This document shows positions 10,120-63,528 of a stretch of DNA of 64,000 nucleotides, piece by piece (the first letter of the stretch is position 1; each line of letters opens with the position of its first letter). The stretch is from Chiloscyllium plagiosum. Lineage: Eukaryota. Under the pieces are notes generated by a model. It did no database searches. It saw only the letters and a program-made list of their open reading frames with translations, and had not been told where the DNA came from. Location of the stretch: NCBI RefSeq assembly GCF_004010195.1, contig NC_057711.1:63938090-64002089 (forward strand), given 5' to 3'. A program made the position numbers and the translations under genes.

Positions 10120-10190
10120 CAGCAGGTCAGGCAGCATCCAGGGAACAGGAGATTCGACGTTTCGGGCACAGGCCCTTCTTCAGGAATGAA
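10120..10190 (-). mobile_element. Short Penelope-type terminal-repeat insertion carrying a minimal hammerhead ribozyme
   Basis: Flanked by an 82-bp direct duplication (10038-10119 / 10191-10272); same family as the other GGAGAAAGTGAGG...CCCTTCTTCAGGAAT copies. Confidence 0.8.
10152..10187 (-). ncRNA. Minimal type I hammerhead ribozyme motif (best-preserved family A copy)
   Basis: Minus strand reads AUUC-CUGAAGA-A-GGGC(CUGU)GCCC-GAAA-CG-UC^GAAU. The core is intact, stem II has 4 bp, stem I is AUUC/GAAU and helix III is palindromic ACGU. Confidence 0.75.
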
Positions 10191-10437
10191 AAATCCCTCG
10201 AGAATGAAAAGGAACGGTGCTCCCCATGGCGCAACACTAGGACAGCCACTACAACTATTAATGACTGATACAATGCATTATTTCAAAGTTTATAAGTGAT
10301 ACAAAACTTGGAAATGAAATAATAAGGACAGAACACAATTTCAGAAGAGCATAGACAGGCTAGTGAAAAGGTCATGTTCATGACAGATGAAACTTAGTTA
10401 GACGAACGTGAGGTGAAACACTTTGGTGGGGAGAATG

Positions 10438-11090
10438 TGTTATGGACCAGGCCAGACCCCCTCAAAACATTTCAAGAAAGTAGCCTGGACCATAACTTTG
10501 CTAGGTATTTTGAGCAGGGGTGAGGTGGATATTCCAGGAGTGATGCACCTGGCCTAGCCACTTGGTTTTAAACAAAACAGAATTTATTTGCAAGATTACT
10601 GAATGAAACAAAAGAGAATAGAATATCTTAGCCTATCCGACAACCCAAAGGATTAACCAAACTTAATGATACTTTTGCATCTACTTGCAACAAATCCCAA
10701 AAACACCTCTAGGTAAAAAGAAAAAGTCAAAGACAGGTCTTACAGGAGAGACGTCAGCGAGAGAGAGAGATTGCAGAGAGGTTCAGCATTGAACACCTTC
10801 TTCCATGCAGCTGTTTCTTTGACCAGCAGCCTCAAAATTGGCTGCCTGCTAAAACCAAACCAAACCAAACCAGAGTAAAGCTGAACTGGGAGAATGGACC
10901 ACTCCCCTTTCATTGTACAGGTGTTTTTTTTATAAAACTTAAAAAGACTTTTGCCTGATGCAGTATCTGTTAGCTCCAATCAAATTCGCCCGAAAGCCCC
11001 TCCAAACTAGACCCCTTACTGGTGTCTTTAGGACCACTGAAAAAAAAACTAAGGACAACATAACCTAGTTAAAGCAGCACCATCGTCACA
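10438..11090 (-). mobile_element. Solo LTR (Gypsy/ERV-type), 653 bp
   Basis: TGTTATG...GTCACA termini with a 4-bp TSD AATG (10434-10437, 11091-11094). TATA-like (~10925-10938) and AATAAA (10583-10588) on the minus strand. Inserted into an old CR1 remnant. Confidence 0.85.
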
Positions 11091-12372: not shown

Positions 12373-12423
12373 TTTTGCCATTCCTGCATCCAAGTCATGA
12401 ATGTAGATTGTAAATAGTTGGGA

Positions 12424-12574
12424 GTCGACATTTCGGGCATAAGCCCTTCTTCAGGCTTATGCCCAAAACGTCGATTCTCCTGCTCCTCGGATGCTGCCTG
12501 GCCTGCTGTGTTTTTCCAGCACCACATTTTTCAACTCTGGTACTCCTACATCTGCAGTCCTCACTTTCTCCTCC
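12424..12574 (+). mobile_element. Hammerhead-family A short insertion with 5' inversion
   Basis: 16-bp TSD TTGTAAATAGTTGGGA (12408-12423 / 12575-12590); the first ~30 bp is an inverted copy of the ribozyme segment. Confidence 0.8.
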
Positions 12575-12691
12575 TTGTAAATAGTTGGGAACCAAGGACA
12601 GAACCCTGTAGCACCAGTTACAGCTTGCAAACTAGAAAGAGATCCACCTATTCCAACTCACTGCTTTTTGTTGGTTAGCCAATCTTCTACC

Positions 12692-12817
12692 TGAAGAAGG
12701 GCTTATGCCCGAAACGTCAATTCTCCTGCTCCTTGGATGCTGCCTGACCTGCTGCGCTTTTCCAGCAACACATTTTCAGCTCTGATCTCCATCATCTGCA
12801 GTCCTCACTTTCTCCCC
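12692..12817 (+). mobile_element. Hammerhead-family A short insertion
   Basis: CTGAAGAAGGGCTTATGCCCGAAACGTC core; 16-bp TSD TAGCCAATCTTCTACC (12676-12691 / 12818-12833). Confidence 0.85.
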
Positions 12818-14799: not shown

Positions 14800-15550
14800 A
14801 AATGGCAAAGGAAATAAACCAGTCTTAATGGTAAGTTCCTGGGGAACGGTGCTGAACAAAGAGACCTTGAAATGCAAGCTCATAGTTCCTTGAAAGTAGA
14901 GTCGCAGGTAGCTAGGATAATGAAGGTGGTGTTTGCTATGCCTTCTTTTAATGGTCACAGCATTGTGCATAGGAATAGGGAGGTCATCTCGCAGCTGTAC
15001 AAGATGTTGGCTAGGCCACTTTTGGAATATTGCATGCAATTCTGGTGTCCTTCCCATCAGAAAGATGTTGTGAAAGGTTCGGAAAAGATTTACAAGGATG
15101 TTACCAGGGTTGGAGGATTTGAACTATAGGGAGAGGCTGAATAGGCTGGGGCTGCTTTCCTGGAGCGTCAGAGGCTGAGGGGCCACCTTAGAGGTTTATA
15201 AAATCATAAGGGGCATGGATAGGATAAACAGACAAAGGTCTTTTCCATAAGGTGAGAAGCCCAGAACTAGAGGGCATAGGTTTAGGATGAGAGGGGTAAG
15301 ATATAAAAGGGACCTAACGGGTAACTTTTTTAGGCAGACCGTGGTGCATGTATAGAATGAGCTGCCAGATAAAGTGGTGGAGGCTGGTACAAATTCCACA
15401 TTTAAATGATATCTGGTTGCGTATATGAATAGGAAGAGTTTAGAAGGATATGGGCCAAGTGCTGGCAAATGGGACTAGATTATATTAGGATATCCAGTTG
15501 GCATGGGCAGGCTGGTCCAAAGGGTCTGTTTCCATGATGTGCGTGACTAT
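14800..15550 (+). mobile_element. CR1 LINE 3' portion (RT C-terminus and 3' UTR)
   Basis: QLYKMLARPLLEYCMQFW motif followed by the conserved CR1 tail. Confidence 0.85.
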
Positions 15551-16563
15551 GTAGTGCTATTAAAATCCTCCACGATTGTATTAAGACTTCATTATATTTT
15601 TACTTGCAAGACACTCTGTAATTAAGGACTAGCCCTTTCTCTTTACGGTCTCTGTACTAATCATTTTCTCGTACTTTGTAATAAAATCCAGATGCCATTT
15701 ACTTTAATTGCTTGTTATACCTCCATGGTATGTGTACCTTGTAAGAGTTCATAGAGTGCAAGTTTTACACTTTTAAAGTGATCTGCTGGTAAACATTCAA
15801 CACAAGTGGTTTCCTTTGGTTTTGCTGCACCGTTCTAATAAATTTCTTCTGCATGCCAATAATTGTTGTGGACCTGCTTTATAAATATTTGGCATAAATT
15901 CCTCAGGTCTATATTCTAAAATGCATTATGATATGAAAGGCACTACCAGGAAGAGCACTTGAAGCAAGTTGAGTGTGCATGGAAAAGTAAATTGGATAAA
16001 TTCTCAAAGGGAAACATTTACAAGACGACAGAAAGAGCAGGGGTGTGATGAGCATGGGGCCAAGGAGAAGGGTCGTGTTCTGCACTGTAATATTGTGTCA
16101 CATAATTCCTACATGATGATTCACAAATATCTCAAGCAAATGTATACCAGTCTATTTGAGTAATTCTAATAGCAAAGTTAACAATTTAGAGATGTCTCAG
16201 AAGGGTCGGACAAACCTAGCCTGAAAATCATGTTGCGATCTTACTGAACAGTCACAGCCTTCGAGAAAATAAGCAACATGAAGTATTTTTTTATTCAAGT
16301 TGCAGCCTTCCGTGCTTGGCAACTTGTAAATTGAAAGAAACATTAGAACGCGCTCCCATACACTAAGCAGCTCACTGTTGTCATCTCAATCGCCCCACCC
16401 AACAAAACGAGCGGTGAGCTGTCAGTTGAAGACCCTGTCCCTACAGTAGGAGTGGCGGAGGGGATATTGCCCCCACTCCCCGGTTTACCCGCCTCCCCAT
16501 GCCCCCGGACATGGCTGGCGGGTCAGGCCGAGTTTACAGACCCCTCTGCAGAGGCCTGCCCGA

Positions 16564-16759
16564 TTCTGGATTAGTGGTGCTGGAAGAGCACAGCAGTTCA
16601 GGCAGCATCCGAGGAACAGCATTCGTCATCCTGATGAAGGGCTTTTGCCCGAAACGTCGATTTTGCTGCTCCACGGATGCTGCCTGAACTGCTGTGCTCT
16701 TCCAGCACCACTGATCCAGAATGTGGTTTCCAGCGTCTGCAGTCATTGTTTTTTACCTG
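16564..16759 (+). mobile_element. Hammerhead-family A insertion with a long internal inverted repeat, in PGGT1B intron 1
   Basis: 13-bp TSD GAGGCCTGCCCGA (16551-16563 / 16760-16772); core CTGATGAAGGGCTTTTGCCCGAAACGTC; 16564-16615 is complementary to 16670-16721. Confidence 0.85.
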
Positions 16760-17100: not shown

Positions 17101-19039
17101 AACCAAGTAAAGGCAAGCCCTTACACTCTGCAACGGTTTGCATCCAGTTAGTTAAGTACGAATTGTTACAGAGTTTCAAAATACCGTCACGTTTCTCCAT
17201 GTCAAGGCTACGTTACGTAGTTTAAAAGGAGCAATCGTGGTTGAAATAAACTTCAACAGTTTGGTTAAAAAATGTATGATAATGCCTTCCTTTCCCCTTC
17301 CTAATTCCCGCTTTTTGAACAAATTTTGGAACCGATAAACTGTTCTACAATTAGGAAGGGGAAAGGAAGGCATTATCATATCAAAAAGTAGAGGACCCAG
17401 TGCCGATCCTTGTGGCATTTGTTTTACTATTTATCTCCAACCAATTGGATTCTACATTTTGATCCTCCAAACTGTTATTTTTCCACTATTGTACTGATAC
17501 TGTTCTTTAGAAACAAAAATTCAATTTCCTGTTACTTTCTGACTTTTTCTGAAATGCCAAATACCCTTGAATATTTAGTTCTCAGCCCTGCTCAATTTCA
17601 TATCATATTTATTTATATAATCTATTTTTCTAATCAACCTGTCAGAGATGTTTTTAACACACCTCTTGAACAAGTGCAACTTGGTCTCAGTCCAGGGGCA
17701 AGGACACCACTATTGCACCATAAGAGCCCCTCCTCATTAACTTATTTTGGTGCAATTAATTTATCCATTATAACTCAGAAAGAACCTTTATTGTACTATT
17801 TTTATCAATTTTCACTACTGACCTTGTTGCTGTTTATGCACTCTATCCCTTTCCACATCATTACCTGTATTGCTAATCTGCACGACTGAGTCATCTTCTC
17901 TCAAATTGTACAAATCTCCGTGCATGAACTCTTCCCTCCGCCCACTATTTAATTTAAAGCTTGCCCTCCAGCCCTGGTTGTACAATCTGTCAGTACACCA
18001 GTCCCAGCGTGCTTCAGGTAAACACTGTACCAACTGTTCTCTTCCTCCAGACCCTGATGCTGTGTTTCATGAATTGAAATAGCATTTCACCCATAGCAAT
18101 CTGCATCATCCATTCAAATCTGATTTTATTTACCCTATGACAATTTGCATTATGTTCTGGTATTAATCCAGATATTATTACCTTTGTATTCATGCTTTAA
18201 ATTTAGCTCCCAGGTTTCACATTTCTTCAGCAGAAACCTTTTTTGGTCTTAGTTGTTGGAATGCATGTGGACTGTGATAATTGTGTCCATCCCCTCTCCA
18301 AATTCCACTCCAACCTTGAGAAAAATTCATAATCCTGGAATTTGGTAGGCAACATAATCTTTAGAACCATATTGCAGCTACAGTGAACAGTACTTATTCC
18401 CATTTCTATACTGTCATGTACAACTACATTACTTTATACTCCACCCTATTTTACACGAATGGCTCCTTGCACCAATGTTTTGTGGGCAGTTTGTCCATCC
18501 ACCCTGCAGTCTCAAACTCTTGTCTACAAAAGTTACAGGAAATCAAATCTAATGGACAACTGCAAAGGCTAAAGTTCCTGTGTTGCTAGATCTCGATTCC
18601 CATACCTGTCTTCCTCACCTCCCTGAATATACAGCAACTAAGAGGTGTGAATACCTTCCCAAATTTTGCAAAGCTCAAACTTCAGCTCATCAACTTCAAG
18701 CTGAAGTTCCTTAAGGTGAAGCCACTTAGTACAAATTTGGCTGACATTGTGAATCGCACTACTTTCTACCAGTTCCCACATTACAGCTGGAACACATTAA
18801 CTACTCTTATGTAAAATTTACCTAATTAGGTTGAGTTTTGAAACACTAAATTTTTGTCCATAGTTATACCAAGCAGTTTAACTAGTTTAGCCATACATTT
18901 AATGTAACACAATACTGCTTTTAACTATTACCCATGTTTTAGAGGAATTACATTTTAGCAGTTCAATCACTTACTTATTCCATTAAAGCTTTGAAAACTC
19001 ATCAGCTTGAGGCCGAAGTGAAAAAAGATCAGATGGGAT

Positions 19040-20195
19040 GCCTGGGGAGCTGGTCAATAAGATAAAAAATTGGCTTTAAGGGAGGAGACAAAGAGTGATG
19101 GTCGAGGGTTGCTTTTCAGACAGCAGGCCTGTGACCAGCAGTATACCACAAGGATTAGTGCTGGGTCCATGGCTTTTTGACATTTATATAAATGATTTGG
19201 ATGTGAACGTAGGAGGTATGATTACTAAGTTTGCAGATGACACAAAAGAAATAGGTGGTGTATTGGACAGCGAAGGTGATTATCTCAGAGTACATTGGGA
19301 CCTTGGGCTGAGGAATACCAGATGGAATTTAAATTAGATAAATGTGAGGTGTTGCATTTTGGTAAGGCAAACCAGGGCAGGATGTATACAATTAATGATA
19401 TGGGCTGAAAATGTGTTGCTGGAAAAGCGCAGCAGGTCAGGCAGCATCCAAGGAACAGGATTCCAGCAACACATTTTCAGCTCTGATCTCCAGCATCTGC
19501 AGTCCTCACTTTCTCCTCGAAGAATTAATGATATGGCCCAGGGGAGTGTTGCCCAAAAGAGACCTTGTGGTGCAGGTGCATAGTTTTTTGAAAGTGGACT
19601 TGCAAGTAGACAGGATGGTAAAGGAAGCATTTAGCACACTTGCTGTCATTGATCAGAACTTTATGAGTGTAGGAGTTGGGATACCATACTGCAGCAATAC
19701 AAGACATTTATGAGGTCACTTTTGGAATACTGCATACGATACTGTCACTCTTATATAGGAAGGATGTTGGTAAACTTAAGAGAGTTCAGAAAAGATTTAT
19801 AAGCATATTTGGACTGGAGGGTTTAAGTTATAGGAAGAGGCTGAATAGGCTGGGGCCATTTTCCCGTGGAGCATTGGAGGCTGAGGGGAGACCTTGGAGG
19901 TTTATAAAATCATGAGGGGCATGGATAGAGTGACTAGTCAAGATCTTTCTCTCCAGAGAATGAGAGTCCAAAACTACAGTCATATGTTTAAGGTGAGAGG
20001 GGAAAGATTTAAAAAGGATCTAAGGGGCAACTTTTTTAAGCAGAGGGTGGTGCACGTATCGAATTAGCTGCCAGAAAAGTGGCGGAGGTTGGTACAATTA
20101 CAACATTTAAAAGGTATCTGGATAGGTATATGAATAGGTAGGGTCTAGAGGGTTATGGATCAAATGCGGGCAAATGGTACTAGATCAATTTGGGA
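19040..20195 (+). mobile_element. CR1 LINE RT fragment, decayed
   Basis: [31 protein letters not shown] plus the CR1 3' tail; interrupted at 19404-19522. Confidence 0.85.
19404..19522. mobile_element. Family A short insertion made of two inverted halves (ribozyme core absent)
   Basis: 14-bp TSD AATTAATGATATGG (19390-19403 / 19523-19536). Confidence 0.8.
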
Positions 20196-20507
20196 TTCCA
20201 CTACTCCATGTGTAAATCCCCTCTTTTGGTCGCTACTCAGTCCTCATTCTCTTTTAACTACACTTTTACTGTTTATGTGCCTAAGATGACTTCAGCATTT
20301 CCTTTTGTTAGCTGCTAGTTTTTTCTTATAGTTCTTCTTTTCTTTGCTCATTTTTTCTCACTACACCACCCCCTCCACCCCCAAAACTTTCATTATTACC
20401 ATTGGTTCTCAAGTTGCTCAAGATTTGAACACTTCCATTGAATCTCTATCATCCTCCTCTTCTGGGGAAAACAAACCCAACTTCCCCTATGTTTCCATAT
20501 AACGCAA

Positions 20508-21000
20508 GTTGAAAGGGTTCAGAAAAGATTAACAAGGATGTTGCCAGGGTTGGAGGATTTGAGCTATAGGGAGAGGCTGAACAGGCTGGGGCTGTTTTCC
20601 CTGGAGAATCAGAGGCTGAGGGGTGACCTTTTGGAAGTTTACAAAATTATGAGGGGCATGGATAGGGTAAATAGGCAAAGTCTTTTCCCTGGGGTTGGGG
20701 AGTCCAGAACTAAACGGCATAGGTTTAGGGTGAGAGGGGAAAGATATAAAAGAGACCTAAGGGGCAACTTTTTCACACAGAGTGTGGTACGGGTATGGAA
20801 TGAGCTGCCAGAGGAAGTGGTGGAGGCTGGTACAACTGCAACATTGAAGAGGCATTTGGATGGGTATATGAATAGGAAGTGTTTGGAGGGATATGGGCCG
20901 GGTGCTGGCAGGTGGGTCTAGATTGGGTTGGGATATCTGGTCGGCATGGATGGGTTGGACCGAAGGGTCTGTTTCCATACTCTACATCTCTATGACTCTA
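20508..21000 (+). mobile_element. Young CR1 (HER1-like) 3' end
   Basis: Open frame MLPGLEDLSYRERLNRLGLFSLE..RLRGDL..WNELPEEVVEAG, ending CTCTATGACTCTA. Confidence 0.9.
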
Positions 21001-22191
21001 AGTTCCTAGATCGAGACAATTCTTGTGAATGTTTTGTACGTCCTGTCAAAAGCCTTCATTCCTTCCTAAGATTTAGTTACCAGAATTGGATACAATAATT
21101 CAGTTGAGTCTACACCAGTGTTTTATGTTATATCCCGATTTAGAAGGCCAAGGATTATTTTTTAAAAACTTATTTTCGCGCTGCCCTGCCTTCTTCAATG
21201 ATTGGTGCATATATAAACCCAGGTCTCTTTATTCCTGTGGCACCCATTTTTACAACTGTACCCTTTTCCTTTATTCACTCCAAAAATGCATCACTTCTGG
21301 GTTCTCTGCCAAGATTCTGCCCAATTCATCAGCCTGTCCATGTCCTCTTGCATCTTATCCCTATCCTCCTCTCAATTCACAAGTTGAAAATATTGCCATC
21401 TAAAAATGCTGAAATTGTGCCCTGTACTCCCAGCTTTTAAGACATTATTATAGTTCAAGGAGCAACTAGAGGAACAATGTTGTAGAACTGAAGTAAGTTA
21501 GAGATAGAAACTGCAATGCTGCAAAGAGGTTCAAAAGTAGATTAAAATTTAAAATTGGATCAATAGCTCAAGGCTAGGGCTACCAGATGAATATCAATAT
21601 TGCAGCTTTATTACCCCATATCTCTGCCAAGCCCCTTAGAATATCCACTCTTCTCTCATATCAATTGGTCATTTAAAATATGTACACTTATAGAATTTAT
21701 ATTTATTTTTAGTTCTAACCTGTGTCATAATGTCTTCCTCAGGATATTTTTGTGTTTGAGTGGTGATGTTATTCTTTACCAGCACATACCCTTGTTTCCC
21801 TTTGTATCGATTCTAAAATTATAATAATCTGGAATATTAAATTGTCACTGCTGTCTAAACCCAAGAAATTCGGTCTGAAGAAGGGTCACAGAACTCAAAA
21901 TGTTAACTGTTTTCTCTCCACAGATGCTTCCACACCTGCTGGATTTCTCCTATTTTGTTTTTATCAGTCCAAATCCTAGCTTTAACTATCATGCTGGTCC
22001 AGTTATTAATACTTCTCACTCTCCAATTCTACTTTGATAGCTTTGTGCATTCACACATACACCATCTCCATTTTTTTCTGATCGTTAACATTTATTTCCC
22101 TTCCTAATTTTCAGAAGAATATTTTTGCCATTTTACAACTTGAACTAACTCATCAACTACTTACTTCATTTCCTTTAAAAGCCTTGCACAA

Positions 22192-29667: not shown

Positions 29668-29808
29668 TGAGGAGAAAGTGAGGTCTGCAGATGCTGGAGA
29701 TCAGAGCTGAAAATGTGTTGCTGGAAAAGCGCAGCAAGTCAGGCAGCATCCAGGGAACAGGAGAATCGACGTTTCGGGCATAAGCCCTTCTTCAGGAATG
29801 TCCAGAAC
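29668..29808 (-). mobile_element. Hammerhead-family A insertion in CCDC112 intron 4 (sense)
   Basis: 15-bp TSD GTCTCCTGAATTCAT (29653-29667 / 29809-29823); intact core at 29764-29799. Confidence 0.85.
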
Positions 29809-41163: not shown

Positions 41164-41190
41164 CATCGTCGCTGTTACTATGGTTGCCAT
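41164..41190 (-). CDS. CCDC112: CCDC112 coding exon 1
   Basis: aagATGG Kozak context, MATIVTATM|gtgagg, similar to the human MAALTTVVV start. The ten exons sum to 1488 nt = 495 aa plus stop. Confidence 0.7.
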
Positions 41191-41208
41191 CTTTGTCAAC
41201 AAAGTGCT

Positions 41209-44700: not shown

Positions 44701-46962
44701 CTTTGAGAAGGTGCAGAGGAAGATCAACTATGATATATGAGAGTTCTGTTCAGAAGTCTGATAACAGCCAAATCTGTTGTTGCGCATATTCAAAGTTTTG
44801 TATCTTTTACCCGATGGAGAGGGACAGAAAAAAGTATAACCGGGGTGGGGGGGGAACTTTGATTATGTTGGCTGCTTTCCCGAGGCAGCGGTCTTAGGCA
44901 GAGCAGATGCCTTGTCAAACTGTGATACATCCAAAATGATTTGGAGGTGCTGGTGTTGGACTGGGGTGGACAAAGTTAATTTAAATCACACAACACCAGG
45001 TTAGAGTGCAACAGATTTGTTTGGAGTGTTCCGAAAATTAGTACTTCCAAATAAACCTGTTGGACTATAAGCTAGTGTTGTGTGATTTTTAACTTTGTAT
45101 ATCTAGTTAGATTGCTTTCTAAGGTGGGCGTAAGAGTCATTGTGCACTTACTGAATTCCCTTAGCCTTCTGAGGAAGTAGAAGCGGTGGTGTGCTTACTT
45201 GACTGTAGCATCAATGTGGATGGACCAGGACAGATTGTTGCTGATATTTACTCCCAGGAACTTGAAGCCCTTGACCACCTCCATCTCAGCACCATTGATA
45301 CAGACAGGGTTGTGTCCTAAATGCACCTCAAGTCACTGTTTTGTTTTCTCAGTGAGCGCAACACTATACTTGGATCATGAATTTCCCTTGAATTGAGACT
45401 TTTCATGTGATCCTTATAATTATGAGGATGGAGACACTCCCAGCACATCCATCTCGGGTGGAATAAAACATAGGCTTGGGAAATGAAAAATCAAATTGCA
45501 GAGGGCTCTCCCACAATTTCATGTTTAAGTAGAGCTTTGAGATAGCTGAGAAAGCCACTATATAACCTGGGTTTGTCTATAAATGTACATAATGTCAAAA
45601 AAAACAAGAATGGAAATATACAGATATAGTAAATATGTGAAAAACATATTTATTTTTCAATTTGTCAATACCTTACTACAGCCTGGACTTGTGCATTAAA
45701 CGGCACTGAAAAATATTGGGGAGTTAGCAGTGGTAAAAGTCTTCTTTTGTTGCTTAGTGTGCAATTTTAAGACAAGGGCAATACAACCTGCCATCTCCTC
45801 AATGTAGCTAAGACTTCTATCTGGGTTTTCCTGCTGCAATCTCACGTCCGAGAATCTTTCGACAGCTTTTACTGCTTCAGCTCTGGAATACTGGCAGGTG
45901 GGCATTTATCAGGGTCTAACTCCACACCCTCACCATAATGCCATGACTTGAATTGGCCCAGCTATCCATCACTGCAGCTGTATTGCTATGGCCCTGGCTC
46001 TTTGCCAGTGTGATTCCTATTGCCTGCAGAGTTGGGAATGTTCTCTGCCGCAGCTGGTAGAGCCACCCTGCTTGGATCAGATGGTTAGGATCACATGGTT
46101 ATATTACCTTGTGTACATAGGTTTGATTAACGTGAAACTACCAGTCTGAAATTATTAGATTTCTTATTCTGCTGTGAGAATGGCTGACAACTTTATCACA
46201 GTCGGAGTTTCAGGTTATCTGGATTTGACTCATGATTTCACTCTACACTGACCCAATGCACCAGTACCTCTCCTATTGTTTTACTTTGATATATGCGGAG
46301 CTGAATCCATATCTAAATGAGATTTCTGTTCATACGGATTCATTGTGTACATCAGAATTAGGCGCAGCAGGATCAGTTCAGATATGGAGCATGCTGTGGA
46401 GTCAATTGATGATCTTAGTTTCTGTTACTGGATTGCCAGTCTTAATGTGCTTCTGTAAAAAAAGATTTGGCATGCAACTACCATATCAGGACTTGGTCAC
46501 ACAGTTCCCAGCCAGCTTTCCAGTGTAATACTGAGGCACTGCTACACTCCGAGAGCTGCTATCTTTTGATGAAATGTTAAACCATCGTCTTGACAGTTCA
46601 TTTGGATGGTCAAGATCCTTGGCACATTTTTAATCGATATTCAAATTAGTATCACTGTCATTTATCTCATTATTGGGATATCTGGCACAAAGCAACTGCT
46701 ACTTTTACATAAATCACACTTCTAAAGTATAGTGAACTTATATGGAATGTTTTAATTTGATTGGGGTGCCAAATTAATTCAAATATCATATAGATGTGGT
46801 AATATTGATTTAAAAGTGGAAAGTCTATCCTCTCCCCATGTTGTTCTTACATTATTGTAGTGCCCTATATCATCCTCAGCTCATCCCAAACTGTTGCGCA
46901 TTAGATTCTGTTTGAAGTGTGAGTGGTTGAAGGAGATAACATCAACTTTAAAGTTAAAATAT

Positions 46963-47330
46963 TGATCAATCCATGAAACAGAAATTGAAAGATAATACTT
47001 CCTCGCAGATTTAAAATCAGAGTGGTCCTAACAAAATGCAAGGCTGGATTTTATGGAGGAAACAGTTCCAAAGATAAAGAACTGCTTCAAAGCTGAATAC
47101 TAAATCAGAAGCGATACAAATGATGGGTATATGAATAGGAAGGGTTTCGAGAGATATGGGCAAAGTGCTGGCAAAGGGGACTAGATTAGTTTAGGATATC
47201 TGGTAGGCATGGATGAGTTGGACTGAAGAGTACATCTGTCATAGAGCTGTACATCTCTATGACTTTTAAGTTACTGCACTACTAAATTTAATAGGTTCTA
47301 TAGCTGATTATGTTAAATCACCGGAAGATA
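46963..47330 (+). mobile_element. Gypsy gag N-terminal fragment (inverted copy), interrupted by a CR1 tail
   Basis: GWILWRKQFQR*RTASKLNTKSEA [CR1 tail ~47123-47268] VTALLNLIG; reverse-complement homologue of 48500-48605 plus 49238-49373. Confidence 0.7.
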
Positions 47331-47399: not shown

Positions 47400-49373
47400 G
47401 GTTTGGTCACTTTTTGTCATTTCCTGAAGTTGTTTCTCAACTTGATTTATTAAGAATCTTTAGAAGAATAACGAAGAATCTTTCCTTAACAATATGTTGT
47501 ATTCATTACTGAGTTTGCCTGATTCTGTGAGCAATTTTTGATAGTCTGTCTCAAAGAAACTTTTCTCCTTATGGTGATGTAGGTTTTGAAGAAGATTGAA
47601 GACACAGTATGCTTTCTTGCTCAATAGTCTGGTTTCCTTACTTTCAATGATTGATGCATTCTCTACTATCTGACATCCTTTATGTTGTAAGATTAATTGC
47701 AGGTTATAACTTTTTTTAAAGCCTTAGCATTTGTTTGAATAATCCAGTCATACTTACCCCTGTATCAAGCTTAAATTGAGTACGATATCCAGTGACATAA
47801 ATAAATTCAGTCTTTTTGATAATGGTGGATCTTCTGTATGCTATAGGAATGCTTTGAGTACCTATTCCAATGGAGTTATATCTTCACATGAGGGTTTCTC
47901 TTTTAATGGAGATGGCTGATCTAGTGTATTAAGATCTTTATGTTAGTACGTCCACTGTTCTGGAACTTGTTTCAGACCCTACACATCTTTTGGAAGTTAC
48001 CCTTTTTTTAACAGATGCAATACACTTTGTCACAGCTGAACACTGCTTTTACCCTGTCAGGCGTTTTATGTCCCACCACACTAACACTGACTCGAAGCAT
48101 TTGATCTCATGCTTATTTTTTTTGTTGACTTGTCATATATCTGTTTAGAGTGTGTGTGTGATGTTAATAGGTTCTGTTCTTCTTATGTGGCGAGGTTGTT
48201 TTTTTCCTGTGAGGAGTTTTCTGTGATTTTCCCTCGTGTCTGCTTCATAGTCTCTGTGTGGTTTGCACAGTTAGATCTCCTTTGGTCTGTAATCTGTCTG
48301 ACAAAGACTGACCAAGTGTTCCTCCAGGAATTGTGACCTTTATGAACTTGGTCTGCAAGGTTCCATGTACACAGGTTTCAACTAACTTGGAGTGGTCACT
48401 CATGAAATTGTCTCTGAAATCCATCTTGCCTGTTGAAAAATTGTATTTGTTCTCAAGTAAAAGTATTGTCAAAGTTTTTATAACATAATCAAATCTTCTG
48501 GTGATTTATTACATCATCAACTGTAGGACCTATTAAATATAGTGGTGTAGTAACTTGTTCTGCTTCGGAGTTAGTGTTCAGCTTTGAAGCAGTTCTTTAT
48601 CTTAGTTAAAAATCACACAACACCAGATTATAGTCCAACAGGTTTAATTGGAAGCACACTAGCTTTCAGAGCGACGCTCCTTCATCAGGTGATAGTGGAG
48701 GGCTCAATCCTAACACAGAATTTATAGCAAAAATTTACAGTGTGATGTAACTGAAATTATACATTGAAAAATTGATTGTCAGTTAAGCCTTTCATCTGTT
48801 AGAATACATTGATAGTTTCACTTCTTTCATGTNNNNNNNNNNNNNNNNNNNNNNNNNNNNNNNNNNNNNNNNNNNNNNNNNNNNNNNNNNNNNNNNNNNN
48901 NNNNNNNNNNNNNNNNNNNNNNNNNNNNNNNNNNNNNNNNNNNNNNNNNNNNNNNNNNNNNNNNNNNNNNNNNNNNNNNNNNNNNNNNNNNNNNNNNNNN
49001 NNNNNNNNNNNNNNNNNNNNNNNNNNNNNNNNNNNNNNNNNNNNNNNNNNNNNNNNNNNNNNNNNNNNNNNNNNNNNNNNNNNNNNNNNNNNNNNNNNNN
49101 NNNNNNNNNNNTTTAAAAAAGTTGCATTCTCGGGTTAGCTGTTAACAATGGTGTTAGCTAGACAATATGTTGAAGGTGTTAGCCCCCTGTGTTCTCTGTC
49201 TATGCCATGATGTTTAGATTGATTCTAATCTAAAAAATTCTTTATCTTAGGAACTGTATCCTCCAAAAATTCCAATCTTGGGTTTTACTAGGAGCTCTCT
49301 GATTTTGAATTTGCTAGGAAATGTTATTTTTTAATTTCTCCTTTAATGGATTGACAAATATTCTGACTTTAAA
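47400..49373 (-). mobile_element. Decayed Gypsy LTR-retrotransposon gag-protease region
   Basis: In order on the minus strand: DWNFWRIQFLR*RTASKL..EQVTTPLYLIG, DNFMSD..SLSDRLQTKGDLT, zinc-knuckle remnant KGNFQKMCR and aspartic protease FKLDTGVS (~47750-47790). Confidence 0.8.
48606..49237 (-). mobile_element. Penelope 3'-terminal fragment with family B hammerhead (contains gap 48833-49111)
   Basis: TSD TTCTTTATCTTAG (48593-48605 / 49238-49250); near-identical to 60103-60470; ribozyme motif at 48657-48691. Confidence 0.85.
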
Positions 49374-50903
49374 GGTATGCAATATTTGTTTATAATTAAA
49401 TATTCTATCTGCTTGCCTTCTTATATTTAGGAATACAGTTTATTTGAATCACTGTAAACTTTGCTAGTGATGTGTGTCATTTTTCACCAGTCTTTGTTAT
49501 TTCAATTTCACAGTTGAACTGTATCAAATTCCTCTAATAAAGCTTGAAATTGTATTTACTGGGTATTCTACAGTGATCCTACTGGGTATTCTACAGTTTA
49601 TGCATCCGCTGCAGCCGGTGTGGCCTCCTCTATATTGGGGAGACAGGCCGCCCTGTTCTAGATTTTAAATTTTATTTTCTTGAAAAGGTCAAGTATTTTT
49701 AAATGGTGTGGCAATATTCTCCTAATAAAGCTTTTACAATTCTTTTAAATGTTTTAAAAGTTGTGGAAACTTTTAAATACATTTCTTAGTAGTGTTATTA
49801 TACCCTTCCTTATTTCAGGATTCAAAATGAAGGAATCCTGCTTCTTTTGTTTCTTTTTGGGAAGTTTCACGTCTTTTTGAACAAAATGGAGGGTACATGT
49901 CATTTTCTATTTTTGGGGTGATTGGCGCATTTTTCCCCTGACAAAATAGTATATTCATACTTGTTCCACTATTAAATATGTTCTGCATTTTTCCTTGCTA
50001 CTGACGTGCTTTATTCATCCTAATTGTCTTTTGCAGTGACTTGGAAGGTGAATTTTTTTGATGGTTCAAAGGAATTGATATATGTTCACTTTTACATTTC
50101 GTAAACCATTGTACCAAAAAATCGGTTACATTGTTGCAGAAGATAATGGTCGTGATAAGGGGTTAACATTCATATTACACCAGTCCCACCCATTCAACTG
50201 ATGGTTGAGACAGGGACAAGATATAGGTGTAACAGCTCTCAGTGGTCCTCATAATTAGGCAATAAACCTTCTTGTTATCTAAGAACAGTACCTCTCTTGT
50301 AGATACTCTTCACTAATTGCCAGATAGGCTCAAGATAAAGCAAAGAAAAAGGAGAATTGGTGTCAGTAACTTATTCCAAACAACCCTTAGGCAGTTGGTA
50401 GAGGTTGCAAATTCCAGAAGATACCTGGTGTCATCATCTTGGAAAATACCACAATGATAATGTTTCAGAATGTATACTGTTTGAACAAAAGGTTGTTTAA
50501 CTGACTAATTTGTTTATAACCTTTAAAAGGACAGTGTTGCTGTGGACTGTTGATCTTGCTCAATATTTTCCATTGTTTATATTAAAAAAAGATTGCAATG
50601 GTATAATGTGTTGCCAGTTGCACCTGAGGCCAAGAAAGTGTGTATTTTTATTTGAATTGCTGCTACAGACATTTCACTGATGGCCAACTCAGTAATTTCT
50701 GTAAATAATTTGGAGCGTGCTGTTCAATTCATCAAGTCAGCTCAAAACTGCCCATAATGCAATATAATTCAAATTTTAATACCATTTAAAATGATTAGTA
50801 GGTTTGAAGTTTTAAAACACATTATAGGGACCTTACTGATGGAAAACAGTGTTTGTCGGTTCTTGTGATTTAATACAGTAACCTCTAATTGTATTTTTTC
50901 CAG

Positions 50904-53640: not shown

Positions 53641-53803
53641 AGGCAGAAGTGGGTACTGCAGATGCTGGAGATTAGAGTGGTGCTGGAAAATCACAGCAGG
53701 TCAGGCCCTCATTCCTGATGAAGGGCTTTTGCCCGAATTGTCGATTTTCCTGCTCCTCGGATGCTGCCTGACCTGCTGTGCTTTTCCAGCACTACTCTAA
53801 TCT
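53641..53803. mobile_element. Family A insertion with an inverted 5' half
   Basis: 14-bp TSD TGAGA(T/C)AAACAATT (53627-53640 / 53804-53817); core mutated (GAATTGTC). Confidence 0.8.
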
Positions 53804-54086
53804 TGAGACAAACAATTGCCAACTCACAAGCAGATAAGGTTTGGAAGTTGAAATTGTCCAGGCCTCACATTGAGAGGTCAAGGTTCAGCATTTGCCTGAA
53901 CAAACATTGCGTGTCTGTTTTCTACTTGTGGTTAAAAAGGGGCTTGTGTACACTTTGGTGGGACTAATGGTTGACCAAATGCTAAGTAGCTGTTGGCCCT
54001 CAGACAGCTATACTCTTCAAATGCAAAAGGAGCTATGGGGATGTCAGTTCCCAGTCATGATCCCATGCACTTTGAAGAGTTAGTTA

Positions 54087-54180
54087 TTCCTGATGAAGGG
54101 CTTTTGCTCGAAACGTCGATTTTACTGCTCCTTGGATGCTGCCTGAACTGCTGTGCTTTTCCAGAACCACTAATCCAGAA
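54087..54180 (+). mobile_element. Hammerhead-family A short insertion
   Basis: 12-bp TSD AAGAGTTAGTTA (54075-54086 / 54181-54192); CTGATGAAGGGCTTTTGCTCGAAACGTC. Confidence 0.85.
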
Positions 54181-56232
54181 AAGAGTTAGTTAAAGTCTAT
54201 TTGTTAATTTCAAAATGAGAAATTTGCTGTTGCCCTTAGAAGAAATGGTAGGATAGTTCCTCGTTACCTTGATCAACTCATTGAACATTTTCCAGCGCTT
54301 GGATTGAAGACACAAGGAAACTGCAAGGTAGGCTGAGTGAATGTCCAAAAATTGGCAGAGGGAGTTTAATATAGGAAAGTGAGAGATTATACACTTGGTC
54401 AGGAGAAAAAGTGAGCCCAGTGCCAGTGCCTTCTCTTGGCATAAGTAGTCTTGTTATCCATCTCAGTTCCATGGAAACAAAACAGTCTACCTGTCCGAAA
54501 TAGAGCAAAATACTGCAGATGTTGGAGATCTAAAATAAAAACAGCAAGTTCCAGTTCTGGCAGCATCTGTGGAGAGAGAAATAGAGCTCATATTTCGAGT
54601 CCGATATGACTCTTACTTGGAACTCCATTCTCTCCCTGTCCTGGTTACTCTTCCAAACTTGTGATGTTTATTTCAACTGACCGTTTTGTGACCCTATTCC
54701 TTCTATAGTTCTCCTGTGTTAGACATTCTTAGAAAATGGCACAAAACAGTTATGTCACATGCTATCAAGCCGACTGAGCCAAACAATCTTTTTCTACTTT
54801 TCTGCTTGTGCCCAGCCTGTTGCTGCAATCTTCAACTGCATTTTTGAACTGTAAATTGTAATGTAATTTACAAGGAGACTACTATTGTTTATGTAGGTTT
54901 TAAGCCAAGTGTTGCTTTTTCATATACTTGAGCAGGTCAGCAATATTCTACTTTAAATATCTCTCCACACCAGCCAATATGTACCAGTGGGGTAACCTCG
55001 CAAGAATAGAAGGGAGGACATAAGGAATCTCAAGGGGTGTAGATATCTTGAGTGAGTGGGCTAAGACTTGGCAGATGGAGCATAAGAAGGTGAGATCTTA
55101 CACATTGGCAGGAAGAATCAAAGCCTGGCTATTGTTTAACTGGAGAGAAATTGTAAAAGAAAAGTGTAGTGCAGAGGGATGTGGGTGTTAGTATGCAGGT
55201 GCAGCATGTAATTTAAAAGACAAATGAGATTTTGGCCATTATTGCTCAGACTTTGGGGTTTAAAAATAGAGAAATCTTGTTATAACAGTACTGGTGTACA
55301 CTTGGAGTAATATGTACAGTTTTAATCCTCGTATTTAAGGAAGGACATGTTGGTATTGGCAGCTTTCAAAAGAGATTCATTAGATGATTCGTTAGTTGAA
55401 GCAATTGATTTGTCAAGAATACCTAATCAGGTTAGGTCTTTGTTCATTAGAGTATAGATGAATGAGGGAGTAATCTCATTGACATGTAGAAGAGTTTGAG
55501 AGGCCCTGACAGCATAAATGTTGAAAAGATGTTTCCACCAATTGGGAAATCTTGAACTTGGGACATAGTTACAGATAAAGGAGACACTGAGATGTGCAGG
55601 AATTCCTTCTCCCAGAAGACAATGATGATAGTCTGGAAATCTGTACTCCAAGAAATTGATAGATTTTAAAAATATTAAGGAGTTAAGGGCAATGAGGAGC
55701 TGGCACAATGGAAGAGCTGAGACGGGCAAATCAGCCATGATCTGGTTGAATGGTGGGGCAGGTTTGAGGGACCGAATGGCCTACCTTTGCTCCTATTTCT
55801 GACATTTTTATATTTATAAGCCAATTTTCTTTTTCCTGTCATCTATTTTTCCATGTGGATGCAAGGTCAGGTTTCCTAAACTGAACCTGTCTCATTTGTC
55901 ATTTTTTTAACACAGAGGGTGGTTCATGTATGGAATGAACTTCCTGAGGAAGTGGTGAATGTGGGTACAGTTACAATGTTTAAAAGATATTTGGGTAAGT
56001 ACATGAACAGGAGAAGTTGGATTGATATGGGCCAGGAGCAGGCAGGTAGGACTGATTTGGTTTGGGATTATGATTGGCATGGTTGAAGCAAAGGACCTGT
56101 TTTTGTTCTATTTAAATCTATATCCATTTAAGCCTTCCCTGTCCAGGTACCTATCAACTGCAGGTAGTCTCCAGAGAAGCAGCCATGGAGGGGTCTCTGG
56201 AAATGGACCTGGTTTTCTGAAGCTGGACAGGC

Positions 56233-56560
56233 AGGCAGGTGCTGGAAACCAGATTCTGGATTAGTGGTGCTGGAAGAGCACAGCAATTCAGGCAGCATCC
56301 GAGAAGCAGTAAAATCGATGTTTCGGGCAAAAGCCCTTAATCAGGAATAAAGGCAGAAAGCCTGAAGTCTGGAGAGATAAGCTAGAGGAGGGTNNNNNNN
56401 NNNNNNNNNNNNNNNNNNNNNNNNNNNNNNNNNNNNNNNAGTGGGAGGGGGAGTTGAAATGTTGGGCCACAGGGCGGTGTGGTTGATTGGTGCGGGTGTT
56501 CCGGAGATGTTCCCTAAAGCGCTCTGCTGGGAGAAGTCCAGTCTCCCCAGTGTAGAGGCC
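56233..56560 (-). mobile_element. Longer family A copy extending into Penelope-like coding sequence (gap 56394-56439)
   Basis: The terminal repeat is preceded on the minus strand by YTGETG and TNQPHRPVAQHFNSPSH, a GIY-YIG-like remnant; this links family A to a Penelope element. Confidence 0.7.
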
Positions 56561-58579
56561 CTAGTGAGGGGATGAGGGAGGGTCATTGTGGAAGAAAGAT
56601 GCAGCTGCACCTCCCTTCAATTCTGGTAGAATACCAACGGCAGATAGATGTGACATTTAGTCAGCAAGTTAAGAACCCCAGTGAATCAGGGGTGTGGTGG
56701 TGGGAGTGTGATGTGGAATGAGTAGAGTGATGTGGAGAATCAATCGAGAATGTAATAGCTGTCCACTCTACACCATCCCTTTGGATTACACACCTCTCCC
56801 CTCCCTTTCCAACTTCCAAACTGCTTACACTGTGTGCTCATGAAGAGGCAAAAGAGCTTTTCATAGAGGTGAACACAGACTGTTTTCACCTAATTGGTAA
56901 GGATAGTTTTCATCTTCACCATTCATTATCAATATGATCAAATTTGCATGCAGAGTAGTAGTACAGTCATTAGTCTGAGTTGTACACATTTGTGTACTGT
57001 AAATTGTAAAACTGGCAAGATGAAAATTTAAGAAAGTTAGGCTGCAAATTTTAATTTGCACCAAGGACTATTTCAGTATTAATGTTATCAAAATTAATAT
57101 CTGCGCACATTTTACCACTTTACATGGTCTCAAAAATAACCTAGAAACCCCATTTATTATATTTGTGGTGAGCGCATAAGCAACTCTGCCTATTCTGAGT
57201 TGCTTGAAACAGAAGGTAGTCCTTTTTCTAGGTGTGTTTATTCAAAAACAAGTCTCTGGCTAGGCCACTTCAAAGGACATTATGAATGAGCAGACAGTGT
57301 ATGGAGAAGCAGATTATACAGGCCAGGATCAGTGTGTTTCTTTCCTTGAAGCACATTAAGAAATCCATTGTTTTATTTTGTGACAATATAGCAGATTTCA
57401 TGTCAGTTTTCTTGGATTATGTCACAAATTATTTGATTTTGCACAGTGGAGTTTGAAGTCAGGGTATTGAGGTTAGTAACTAGTATTATAGTCAGTGTAC
57501 TACCGTATGACTCAAAATGGAGGTGAATTGTCAGAGTTTCCATGAAAAAGACAAACTACTATTGCTTTAATGTAAAGCAAAAACTGAAAGTGCTGGAAAA
57601 ATTCAGAAGGTCTGGCAGTATCTGTGGAGAGAGAAACACAGTTAATTAACCTTTCAATTCATCTACCTTTATGTGCCTGTCGCGTTCCCAGCTGCCTTCT
57701 CCCTGGCTGCACCTCCCTCCCATTTATCTCTCAGCCCGCTTGGGCCACGGGCTTCATTCCGGGGGTGGCTTGTGCTCGAAGCGTGGATGCTCCTGATCCC
57801 TATTCTAACCCCATCTTCAGCTTCCTTTTCGCTTGTATTGCGCGCATGTGTCTTACAAAGGTGGTTTCTCTGTTCTCACGGCTGGAGGTTGCAAGGCAAT
57901 AGATTGAAACCTTGTAACTCCAAATTAGTGGGGTTTTTTTAGATTTAATTTCTATAGGAACTTCTCAGAACTGACCAAGAGTCTATTTAATGTCCTCTTT
58001 CCAAGTTCAGTTTCTAGTTTGGCTCCAGGGACAGTCCTGAAAGAACAGGATGAAGAGTAACTTAAGAGCATATCATTTTGAATGCTTCTCCAGGTTAACT
58101 GGAGACTGTTGTTAGGGTTGGTAACAAGACATATGGTGTATTGGTTTTGTTAGGAGAGGGATTGAGTTTCGGAGCCACGAGGTCATGCTGCAGCTGTACA
58201 AAACTCTGGTGCGGCTGCAAAGGGTGTAGAGGAGATTTACTAGGTATGGGAGGGAAGGTCTCACGAGGAAAGGCTAAGGGAACTGAGGCCATTTTCGTTA
58301 GAGAGAAGAAGAGTGAGAGGTGACTTAATTGAGACATGTAAGATAATCAGAGGGTTAGATTGGGTGCACAGTGATGGTGGTGATGACTAGCATGAGGGGG
58401 GCATAGCTTTAAATTGATAGATATAGGACAGATGTCAGATGTAGTTTCTTTACTCAGAGAGTTGTAGGGACATGGGACATATTGTCCGCAACAGTATTAT
58501 ACTCGTCAACTTGAAGGGCAATTAAATGGTCATTGGATAAACATATAGATCATAATGGAATAGTGTGTGATAGATAGGA

Positions 58580-60067: not shown

Positions 60068-61720
60068 TTTGGAGATGCCAGTGTTGAACTGGGGTGTACA
60101 AAGTTAAAAAATCACACAACACCAGGTTATAGTCCAACAGGTTTAATTGGAAGCACACTAGCTTTCGGAGCAACGCTCCTTCATCAGGTGATAGTGGAGG
60201 GCTCAATCCTAACACAGAATGTTTAGCAAAAATTTACAGTGTGATGTAACTGAAATTATACATTGAAAAATTGATTGTCTGTTAAGCCTTTCATCTGTTA
60301 GAATATAGTGATAGTTTCACTTCTTTCATGTGTAAATCACAAAACCTTTTTTTTTAAGTTGCATTCTCAGGTTAGCTGTTAACAATGGTGATAGCTAGAC
60401 AATATGTTGAAGGTGTTAGCCTCCTGTGTTCTCTGTCTATGCCATGATGTTTAGATTGATTCTAATGTAAAAAGTGAGATAACAGTTTTACATAAATTCA
60501 TGCAGTTCTTGAGCTCAGAGTTCTACATGAATGCATGCAGTTTTTGAGCAAAGTACAATGTAACTCTGCAAGTACAAATTCACCGCACAAAATATATGTG
60601 TGCATGTGGGTCTTGTCTGTGTGTGTGTGTCTGACTGGGGTGGGGGTTGTGAGTGTGAGAAAGTGTGTGTGTGTGTTTGTAGTGAGTGCAGAGTGTCTTA
60701 AGTCTGTGAGGGCGTGCATGTGTGAGTGTGGGAGTGTGTGTGTCTATAAGGGTGTATGTGGGTGTCTGTGTGCGCATCTGTGTGTACTGTGTCCGTGTGT
60801 GTGTGTAGGAATATCTGTGTGTGTGTGTAGTGCAATGGTGATTACCTGTAATGTGACATGAACCCAAGGTCCCGGTTGAGGCCCTCCCTATGGGTACCGA
60901 ACTTAGCTATCAGCCTCCGCTCGGCCACTTTTCTCTGCTGCCTGTCCCGAAGTCTAACTTGGAGCATGGTCACCCAAAGGTCTGAGGGTTAATGTCCTGG
61001 ACCACTGAAGTGTTTCCCAACTGGGAGGGAATCCTCCTGTCTGTTGATTGTTGTGCAGTGCCCATTCATCCATTGTCGTAGCCTTTGCTCGGTTTCCCCA
61101 AAGTACCATGCCTCCGGGCATCCTTGCCTGCAACGTTGGCTGGGTCACATGAGTACCTGCCATGTACAAGGTGGGAGGTGTTCCCATGCGTAATAGTAGT
61201 ATCTATGTCCACAATCTGACACGTCTTGCAGCGTCCACCGTGACAGGGTTGTATGGAATTGTCCTGAGAGCCGGGCAGTTTGCTACAAACAATGATCTGT
61301 TTGAGGTTTGGTGGCAAGTAGTGGAGGTGTGGGGAAGGTCTTGATGAGGTGCGCATCCTCATTGATAATGTAGGTCACGAAGAACATGGCGTAATTTTTC
61401 AGCTCCTGGGAAGTACTGAACAACGAAGGGTACCCTGTCAGTTGCAGCCCGTATCTGTCTCCTGAGGAGGTCATTACGGTTCCTTGCTGTGTCACGTCGG
61501 AACTGGCGGTCGATGAATTGAGCATCATACCCCGTTCTTGTGAGGGCATCCCTGAGTACTTCCAGGTGTCCGTCACATTCCTCCTCACCTGAGTAGATCC
61601 GGTGTAGGGCTTGTCCATAGGGAATGGCTGTTTTAATATGTTTTGGGTGGAAGCTGGAGAAGTGTAGCATTGTGAGGTTGTGTGTGGGTTTGCGGTAGAG
61701 TGTGGTGCTGAGGTGTCCAT
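60068..61720 (-). mobile_element. 5'-truncated Penelope element (RT thumb, GIY-YIG, (CA)-rich UTR, hammerhead terminal repeat)
   Basis: LHFSSFHPKHIKTAIPYGQALH, PCHGGRCKTC, AWYFGETEQRLRQRMNGH; flanking CCTGG duplication (60063-60067 / 61721-61725). Confidence 0.9.
60156..60190 (-). ncRNA. Minimal hammerhead ribozyme motif, family B
   Basis: CAC-CUGAUGA-A-GGAGC(GUU)GCUCC-GAAA-GC-UA^GUG: intact core, 5-bp stem II, stem I CAC/GUG, palindromic AGCU. Confidence 0.75.
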
Positions 61721-61973
61721 CCTGGGGCAGTATTTGTAGAGGAATAAGACGGTGTTATTTTCTGGGTCTGTAGATTGTGAAGGAGCAAAAATGGCCTTTA
61801 ATAGAGTGATATGTACTTCTTGTCAGATGTGGGAGTTTAAACAGAGTTTATGGGTTACTGTGAATTATATCTGCCATAAATGCTGTTGGCTGCGAATCTT
61901 ATCAGATCGAATGGATCGGTTGGAGAGACAGTTAGAAGCAATGAGGAATTTTCAACAGCAACAGTATGTGATG

Positions 61974-63528
61974 CAGGTACAGCAGGTAGTAAAGAAGGTT
62001 AATAGCATGCTGGCCTTCATAACAAGAGGGATTGAGTATAGAAGCAAAGAGGTTCTTCTGCAGCTGTACAGGGCCCTGGTGAGACCACACTTGGAATATT
62101 GTGTGCAGTTCTGGTCTCCAAATTTGAGGAAAGACATTCTGGCTATTGAGGGAGTGCAGCGTAGGTTCACAAGGTCAATTCCTGGAATGGTGGGACTACC
62201 TTACGCTGAANNNNNNNNNNNNNNNNNNNNNNNNNNNNNNNNNNNNNNNNNNNNNNNNNNNNNNNNNNNNNNNNNNNNNNNNNNNNNNNNNNNNNNNNNN
62301 NNNNNNNNNNNNNNNNNNNNNNNNNNNNNNNNNNNNNNNNNNNNNNNNNNNNNNNNNNNNNNNNNNNNNNNNNNNNNNNNNNNNNNNNNNNNNNNNNNNN
62401 NNNNNNNNNNNNNNNNNNNNNNNNNNNNNNNNNNNNNNNNNNNNNNNNNNNNNNNNNNNNNNNNNNNNNNNNNNNNNNNNNNNNNNNNNNNNNNNNNNNN
62501 NNNNNNNNNNNNNNNNNNNNNNNNNNNNNNNNNNNNNNNNNNNNNNNNNNNNNNNNNNNNNNNNNNNNNNNNNNNNNNNNNNNNNNNNNNNNNNNNNNNN
62601 NNNNNNNNNNNNNNNNNNNNNNNNNNNNNNNNNNNNNNNNNNNNNNNNNNNNNNNNNNNNNNNNNNNNNNNNNNNNNNNNNNNNNNNNNNNNNNNNNNNN
62701 NNNNNNNNNNNNNNNNNNNNNNNNNNNNNNNNNNNNNNNNNNNNNNNNNNNNNNNNNNNNNNNNNNNNNNNNNNNNNNNNNNNNNNNNNNNNNNNNNNNN
62801 NNNNNNNNNNNNNNNNNNNNNNNNNNNNNNNNNNNNNNNNNNNNNNNNNNNNNNNNNNNNNNNNNNNNNNNNNNNNNNNNNNNNNNNNNNNNNNNNNNNN
62901 NNNNNNNNNNNNNNNNNNNNNNNNNNNNNNNNNNNNNNNNNNNNNNNNNNNNNNNNNNNNNNNNNNNNNNNNNNNNNNNNNNNNNNNNNNNNNNNNNNNN
63001 NNNNNNNNNNNNNNNNNNNNNNNNNNGTTTCCTGGATGCTGCCTGACCTGCTGTGCTGTTCCAGCAATAAAGTTTCAACTTTGATCTCCAGCATCTGCAG
63101 ACCTCACTTTCTCCCCTTGTATACCCTTGAGTTTAGAAGACTGAGAGGGGATCTGATTGAGACATATAAGATTATTTAAGGATTGGACACTCTGGAGGCA
63201 GGAAACATGTTTCCGCTGATGGGTGACTGCTGAACCAGAGGACATAGCTTAAAAATACAGGGTAGACCATTTAGGACAGAGATGAAGAGAAACTTCTTCA
63301 CCCAGAGAGTAGTGGCTGTTGGAATGCTCTGCCCCAGAGGGCAGTGGAGGCCCAGTCTCTGGATTCATTTAAGAAAGAGTTGGATAGAGCTCTCAAGGAT
63401 AGTGGAATCAAGGGTCATGGAGGTAAGGCAGGAACAGGATACTGATTAAGGATAATCAGCCATGATCATATTGAATGGCGGTGCAGGCTCGAAGGGCAGA
63501 ATGGCCTACTCCTACACCTATTGTCTAT
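61974..63528 (+). mobile_element. CR1 3' fragment nested in CR1 ORF1 (spans gap 62211-63026 and a family A piece at 63027-63115)
   Basis: LQLYRALVRPHLEYCVQFWSP; tail CCTATTGTCTAT; TSD TGTGATG (61967-61973 / 63529-63535). Confidence 0.85.

Follow-up and report, generated by a model that had tools for sequence, protein, structure and literature searches.

Short repeats with a minimal hammerhead ribozyme motif are scattered along a 64,000-nt stretch of the Chiloscyllium plagiosum genome (contig NC_057711.1, positions 63,938,090 to 64,002,089; this whole stretch is called the window below), which raises the question of what element they belong to and what determines their ends. By their sequence, the window repeats are the terminal module, or pseudo-long terminal repeat (pLTR), of an autonomous Penelope-like element (PLE). 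The 5′ ends of the copies are not random; they peak at the 5′ edge of the hammerhead core, and none are located near the predicted cut. Most copies are probably run-off products of internally primed reverse transcription that reached a likely capped RNA start about four bases before the core, where the start, the cap and the individual steps are what we infer.

To describe the ends of the copies, nucleotides were numbered with q1 at window position 12690, which places C3 of the core at q2 and the predicted cut between q29 and q30. The 5′ ends were compared for 83 arms of insertions, after nine of 92 arms had been dropped because an N or the edge of a locus lay at their 5′ end; these were probably mostly long, so that long arms are under-counted. 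The data showed that 46 of the 83 arms began between q-10 and q+10, while none began in q-81 to q-11, and none in q26 to q33, around the predicted cut. Five of the 83 rows, beginning at q91–97, were matches to the tail only. Hence, an earlier remark in the preliminary description of this DNA, that several copies begin within a few nucleotides of the core, was borne out, while random 5′ truncation, which it had offered as an alternative, does not fit the pile-up of ends at the edge of the core.

The surplus of 5′ ends was sharp at q-2, four bases before the core, with a non-parental G in front. Among 24,005 exact 30-mers of one subfamily counted genome-wide, the base at q-3 was the parental C in 17449, G in 3955, A in 1854, and T in 747. 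The non-parental bases amounted to 27%, as compared to 2.3% at a comparable C of the spacer (51 of 2227, of which seven were G), and G made up 60% of them. Further positions and subfamilies were tallied by eye in the first 100 rows each. At q-5, used as a control, G was found in 13 rows. At the equivalent of q-3 the subfamily with the CUGU loop gave G43 A46 T11, with 18 of the A rows in palindromic junctions, and the same test in an older related family gave G37 A26 T37. The base at q-2 is the A of a motif resembling the initiator consensus, which the older family shares with unchanged spacing; these four bases also make up the 5′ strand of stem I. An internal TATA-less promoter with an initiator and a downstream promoter element has been described for Drosophila Penelope (PMC2377424).

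The 3′ ends fell into two groups. Of 92 arms, 45 ended at q126 and 32 at q84–94, and the two ends (~q92 and ~q126) are separated by a 34-nt tail. In 132 evenly spaced 10-kb loci of the genome, 164 related insertions were found in 1.27 Mb, which corresponds to one per 7.7 kb with sister subfamilies included, and 39 of the 164 were head-to-head. The head-to-head pairs with at least 88% identity comprised 15 of a tailed with a tail-less arm, none with two tailed or two tail-less arms, and eight unclassified. Target-site duplications (TSDs) of 10–21 bp flanked 25 of 46 short insertions, as compared to 0 of 46 in the control. A 30–40 bp tail at one end and an adjacent inverted copy have been described for PLEs (PMC8557442; PMC3846280), and thus the head-to-head arms and the 34-nt tail are both known Penelope signatures.

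These features would be explained best if the element RNA started at q-2 and the extra G were a copied cap. The element protein would bind near the start of the open reading frame (ORF) and nick both target strands ~15 bp apart, and the reverse transcriptase (RT) would prime internally at two sites, q92 and q126. For a PLE of the anole, in vitro data showed two internal priming sites bounding the tail and extension of both strands, with no need for hammerhead cleavage (PMC11167929). Priming in the first pLTR would run off the capped end after 95–130 nt. Both target strands may prime cDNA, and one cDNA would give a simple copy, while two cDNAs, presumably joined by microhomology, would give a head-to-head copy. 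Long copies could arise by priming in a downstream pLTR of tandem or read-through RNA, and the short copies would lead no further. Cleavage by the hammerhead would require a dimer and does not determine the ends of copies. On balance, we lean toward the additional view that such a strong-stop-like cDNA, primed on both strands near the capped 5′ end, run off after 95–130 nt and with the cap copied as G, is the commonest product of the element. An untemplated 5′ G in full-length L1 and SVA insertions has likewise been read as a copied cap, and inversions there have been ascribed to twin priming; in contrast to those kilobase-long copies primed at the 3′ end, the copies described here are 95–130 bp long and their inverted arms overlap in sequence (PMC4859970).

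In poly(A) single-cell reads the pLTR was spanned on both strands, 87–94% of the reads continued into unlike flanks, and no pile-up of starts or ends over the pLTR was reported in them; in a second run no reads were placed on it. This coverage reads as passive transcription of genomic copies. Separately, at locus L146 near 7350–7520 (minus strand), q135–190 is joined to q-7..91, apparently within one TSD, which suggests that the RT switched template at the RNA 5′ end and returned into the 5′ region. Joints of this go-back type were also seen in contigs of sequencing runs, two of them with G before q-2. At L178, ~1–400, a near-perfect fold-back of a sister subfamily extends in both arms to ~q165.

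The parent element was recognized at two loci, L067 and L055, which upholds the link to Penelope proposed earlier. L067 contains a 561-aa open frame matching Pfam RVT_1 (E 1.4e-8) and GIY-YIG (E 5e-4, under the curated cut-off, with the motif present), and this frame ends ~160 nt before a copy that is 95% identical to window 12690–12815 (126 nt). The nearest named relatives of its protein, among the matches listed, are from carpet sharks. The linker between RT and endonuclease reads C-x4-C-x2-C, and a CX2-5CxxC linker is described as a mark of Neptune and Nematis (PMC8557442). From these sequence features the parent is classed as an endonuclease-containing (EN+) PLE of Neptune type, the clade being assigned by the linker motif, which is shared with Nematis, and not by a tree. 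Several close copies extend upstream into one common spacer and then into endonuclease-coding DNA. At L055, where the pLTR is formed by a partial tandem arrangement, the order across the junction is endonuclease end, spacer, q1–126, 5′ region, and N terminus of the next ORF. Thus, the module both terminates genomic copies and precedes the ORF, which identifies it as the pLTR. Judging from broken copies, the ORF seems to begin ~160 nt after the core. In the window, the copy at 56233 continues across an N gap into endonuclease-coding DNA (56441–56560); an isolated fragment of PLE endonuclease is also present at 49577–49652.

This organization is similar to that of EN+ PLEs of the Neptune clade, which have an RT with a C-terminal GIY-YIG domain, a CxxC linker, a hammerhead in the pLTR, partial tandems, an adjacent inverted copy, a 30–40 bp tail, and TSDs (PMC8557442; PMC3846280). 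The difference is that most copies described here are micro-insertions of the pLTR alone, with a G ahead of a defined 5′ end, while short PLE copies are described in the same two sources as 5′-truncated, or as solo pLTRs formed by recombination or deletion. The element also resembles Poseidon_Ac (PAc) of the green anole in having two internal start sites of the RT at the borders of the tail, in its hammerhead at the junction of pLTR and ORF, and in the lack of any sign of a cleavage-defined template (PMC11167929). However, PAc belongs to another clade and its ORF begins within stem II (PMC11167929).

Several observations weigh against a capped RNA start as the source of the 5′ ends. The excess of G was not replicated in the sister group with CUGAUGA and the UUUU loop, where the tally was G22 A23 C55. 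The ends are scattered over more than one base, ~q-10 to +8, and when a larger set, in part selected, was compared, 8 of its 51 ends of long arms fell in q-81 to q-41, which means that the peak is strong, but there is no absolute wall. G was also found at 18 of 47 (38%) junctions of long truncated arms as compared to 60% at q-3 (p=0.003), and hence part of the G bias is general. Among 30 inspected loci with G at q-3, the G often also matched the target site or the partner arm, consistent with microhomology, in others it fitted neither, and one of the 30 was a C-to-G point change in a long copy. In addition, A exceeds T at q-3, which palindromic junctions explain only partly.

Some of these data would also be expected if the copies were ordinary 5′-truncated 3′ ends of the PLE, with the RT stalling past the hammerhead at RNA structure or a bound protein and adding a non-templated C, without any end of the RNA at this place. 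This is the main competing explanation, though we regard it as rather unlikely. It would agree with the scatter of ends over ~18 nt, with the G at 38% of other junctions, with the description of PLEs as heavily 5′-truncated (PMC8557442), and with the existence of long copies crossing the site, which were 19 of the 30 inspected loci with C at q-3. On the other hand, the stop is located on the 5′ side of stem II, where the hairpin has already been copied, and neither the frequency of non-parental bases at q-3 relative to the spacer nor the dependence of the G excess on position, with 13% at q-5, is expected from stalling.

The preliminary description had proposed an independent, non-autonomous, retrozyme-like family mobilized by Penelope. 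We consider such a family, whether retrozyme- or SINE-like, with its own master copies mobilized in trans, improbable, and it is largely refuted by shared haplotypes: short and long arms (53 and 22, respectively) carry the same diagnostic haplotypes at similar frequencies. It is true that short copies are the more numerous in random loci, by these same 53 to 22 arms, that they have TSDs and a defined 5′ end, that a short copy would retain an internal promoter, if any, and that PLE-derived retrozymes are described in vertebrates, including one chondrichthyan (bioRxiv 10.64898/2026.07.22.740005). The copies also resemble non-LTR retrozymes in being short, non-coding, related to PLEs, and equipped with a type I hammerhead (PMC7229834; bioRxiv 10.64898/2026.07.22.740005). 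However, retrozymes form head-to-tail tandem units that give rise to circular RNAs (same sources), while the copies described here are single or head-to-head and end at PLE priming sites. Only four same-strand neighbor pairs within 600 nt, and no arrays, were found among 162 core-bearing arms in the 1.3-Mb sample, which leaves room for rare arrays elsewhere. CpG positions, including G12 and C17 of the core, were changed in 10% of cases, no ends were located at the cut site, and short copies do not have the sequence past q126 that is needed downstream of the priming sites in the anole element, if this requirement can be transferred. Hence, the shared haplotypes, the near-absence of tandem arrays, and the decay of core CpGs leave an independent retrozyme-like family unsupported.

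Even less probable is the nicking of a DNA intermediate by the element's endonuclease at ATT just before the core. The endonuclease of the anole PLE favors an ATT motif in its own pLTR (PMC11167929), and q-2 to q0 are ATT, but this would leave the G unexplained, and AGT takes its place in the older family, where G is nevertheless above A. Self-cleavage by the hammerhead as the origin of the template 5′ end has the least to recommend it, because even though the motif fits a minimal dimeric hammerhead and different families share the helix III palindrome and the stems, none of the 83 arms begins in q26 to q33, the copies retain the whole core upstream of the cut, and, as predicted from the sequence, a cut at the UC before q-2 could form neither helix III nor stem I.

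The hammerhead motif itself was searched for with a descriptor in the 132 loci and the window, and gave 105 matches versus 2–5 per shuffle in five shuffles, which shows that the motif does not arise by chance and supports the earlier assignment, as predicted from sequence, to minimal hammerheads. The conserved core, stem II, bulged base, and palindromic helix III are features of a minimal type I hammerhead. They agree with those of metazoan PLEs, which have CUGANGA and GAAA, an unpaired base before stem II, G10.1-C11.1, a palindromic 15.2–16.2, and a short stem I, and which occur mostly as single motifs with some opposite-strand pairs; stem II has 4 bp and stem I 2–4 bp here, in contrast to a stem II of 7–8 bp in Schistosoma (PMC4209133). 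When the window was scanned with Rfam, which is without a matching model, no hammerhead was recognized up to an E value of 5, and the miRNA matches were rejected as fold-back artifacts of the inverted arms. In the computed dimer, pairing is through the palindrome of helix III, a result that concerns pairing and not catalysis. Stem II, but not the hammerhead fold, is retained when single copies are folded for minimum energy. Dimeric hammerheads of PLEs were reportedly the subject of work by Lunse et al. in 2017.

The variation of the tetraloop, previously taken as structure-like conservation, was instead found to mark subfamilies, each variant being common to many copies, and no covariation was found among copies of one subfamily. 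Compensated changes were seen between subfamilies or families, namely stem II GGGC/GCCC (73 matches) versus GAGC/GCUC (4), helix III ACGU versus AGCU, and changes in stem I; these represent few independent events, counted informally. Their confinement to this level is expected if selection acts on master elements. The mismatch was 1.8% in core columns versus 3.8% in body columns, but selection on the core was set aside as the explanation, given that A is abundant in the core, that variants of subfamilies are located in the body, and that CpGs of the core decay. Three further readings were considered from the sequence and dropped, namely a type III hammerhead, cleavage at the UC before q-2, and a splice acceptor near q-24; either the required helices are unable to form, or the ends lie elsewhere.

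In the window, the family sequence was found at all 13 places, a dozen copies and one piece, that had been named earlier, and the density of one insertion per 4.8 kb agrees with the estimate of about one per 5 kb. The paired 4-bp stem II between CUGANGA and GAAA is present in eight of the 13 copies (seven strict matches and 54090), which agrees with the statement that most carry the core, but the following CGUC is kept in only six, substitutions affect the core at 39538, 53641, and 56233, and the copy at 19404 is without a core. The proposed size of 70–200 bp with clean TSDs holds in part: TSDs of 12–17 bp surround nine of the 13 copies, while the insertion at 33791 is a 764-bp composite and that at 56233 runs on into endonuclease-coding DNA. 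For the five older relatives, the match was to a related family. The individual features are as follows.

10120–10189, minus strand: pLTR piece q-4..65 of the CUGU-loop subfamily, core intact, without the 3′ end; flanks are an 82-bp duplication.
12422–12574, unstranded: head-to-head, minus arm q1..34 and forward arm q10..126; TSD 16 bp.
12690–12817, plus strand: simple copy q1..126 with tail, core intact; TSD ~14–16 bp; 95% identity to the ORF-linked L067 copy.
16563–16759, unstranded: head-to-head, sister subfamily (CUGAUGA, UUUU loop), intact core at 16631; TSD 13 bp.
19404–19516, unstranded: head-to-head q35..91 and q71..126, without hammerhead core; TSD 14 bp.
29668–29800, minus strand: simple copy q-3..126, core intact, 8-nt filler at the 5′ junction; TSD 15 bp.
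33790–34553, unstranded: 764-bp composite of minus arm q-109..126 (33790–34025), 333-nt foreign filler (34026–34358), and inverted arm q-190..1 (34359–34550); TSD ~15–17 bp.
37206–37299, plus strand: simple tail-less copy q-1..92, UCAU loop, C17 changed to U; TSD 17 bp.
39539–39662, minus strand: sister subfamily, compensated stem II (GAGC/GCUC), GAAA mutated; no TSD found.
53641–53803, unstranded: head-to-head, sister subfamily, A15.1 mutated; TSD 14 bp with one mismatch.
54086–54180, plus strand: tail-less copy from q-2, sister subfamily, core intact; TSD 12 bp.
56233–56393, minus strand: long copy, sister subfamily (G8 mutated), with upstream spacer, into the N gap 56394–56439; TSD not readable because of the gap.
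56441–56560, minus strand: coding piece for the GIY-YIG endonuclease C terminus, with 77% identity to the protein of L067; located upstream of the 56233 copy and on its strand.
63027–63117, plus strand: 3′ piece q39..126, 5′ side in an N gap; TSD not readable because of the gap.
4372–4495, unstranded: older related family, head-to-head arms with degenerate core, by sequence match.
21872–21950, plus strand: older related family, partial core; more pieces near 33602–33656, 54512–54623, and 57575–57646.

The 82-bp direct duplication around the 10120 copy (10038–10119 and 10191–10272) is far above the usual 12–17 bp. The filler at 34026–34358, which contains a short LINE-RT-like reading and lies inside one TSD, was either captured at insertion or inserted later.

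The ribozyme and the type of element were already known, and the family itself is ordinary; its value is as a genomic record of PLE copying with regard to the probable RNA start, the likely uncleaved template, and the priming sites as a coordinated pair. If the strong-stop reading is true, tens to hundreds of thousands of hammerhead-headed micro-insertions record a transcription start in DNA, and the RNA begins directly with the hammerhead. Solitary minimal hammerheads, probably from truncated PLEs, have been described in the thousands per genome (PMC4209133); the same reading would account for them, most of those in animal genomes being run-off products of the 5′ end instead of truncated 3′ ends. 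No earlier account of capped, 5′-defined short PLE copies was found in the literature searched, which was without Repbase, Dfam, and most subscription papers, and the supplements of bioRxiv 10.64898/2026.07.22.740005 may list the family.

Other repeats were also observed in the window. A second family with a hammerhead core, with the helix III palindrome AGCU, is present at 48608–48832, 60107–60331, 44974–45094, and 60863–61712, and remnants of distantly related PLE coding sequence precede the core at 60187 on the same strand. A third such family, with a stem II of 6–7 bp, is found at 31967–31996 (plus strand) and 30672–30710 (minus strand). A tandem array with a 35-bp period occupies 41174–41441, and 17275–17380 contain a perfect inverted repeat of 32 bp, the arms of which are separated by a spacer of 42 bp. 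Another dispersed repeat, at 14962–15560, 19662–20265, 20521–21003, 35624–36096, and 47091–47266, presumably represents 3′ ends of CR1-type LINEs.

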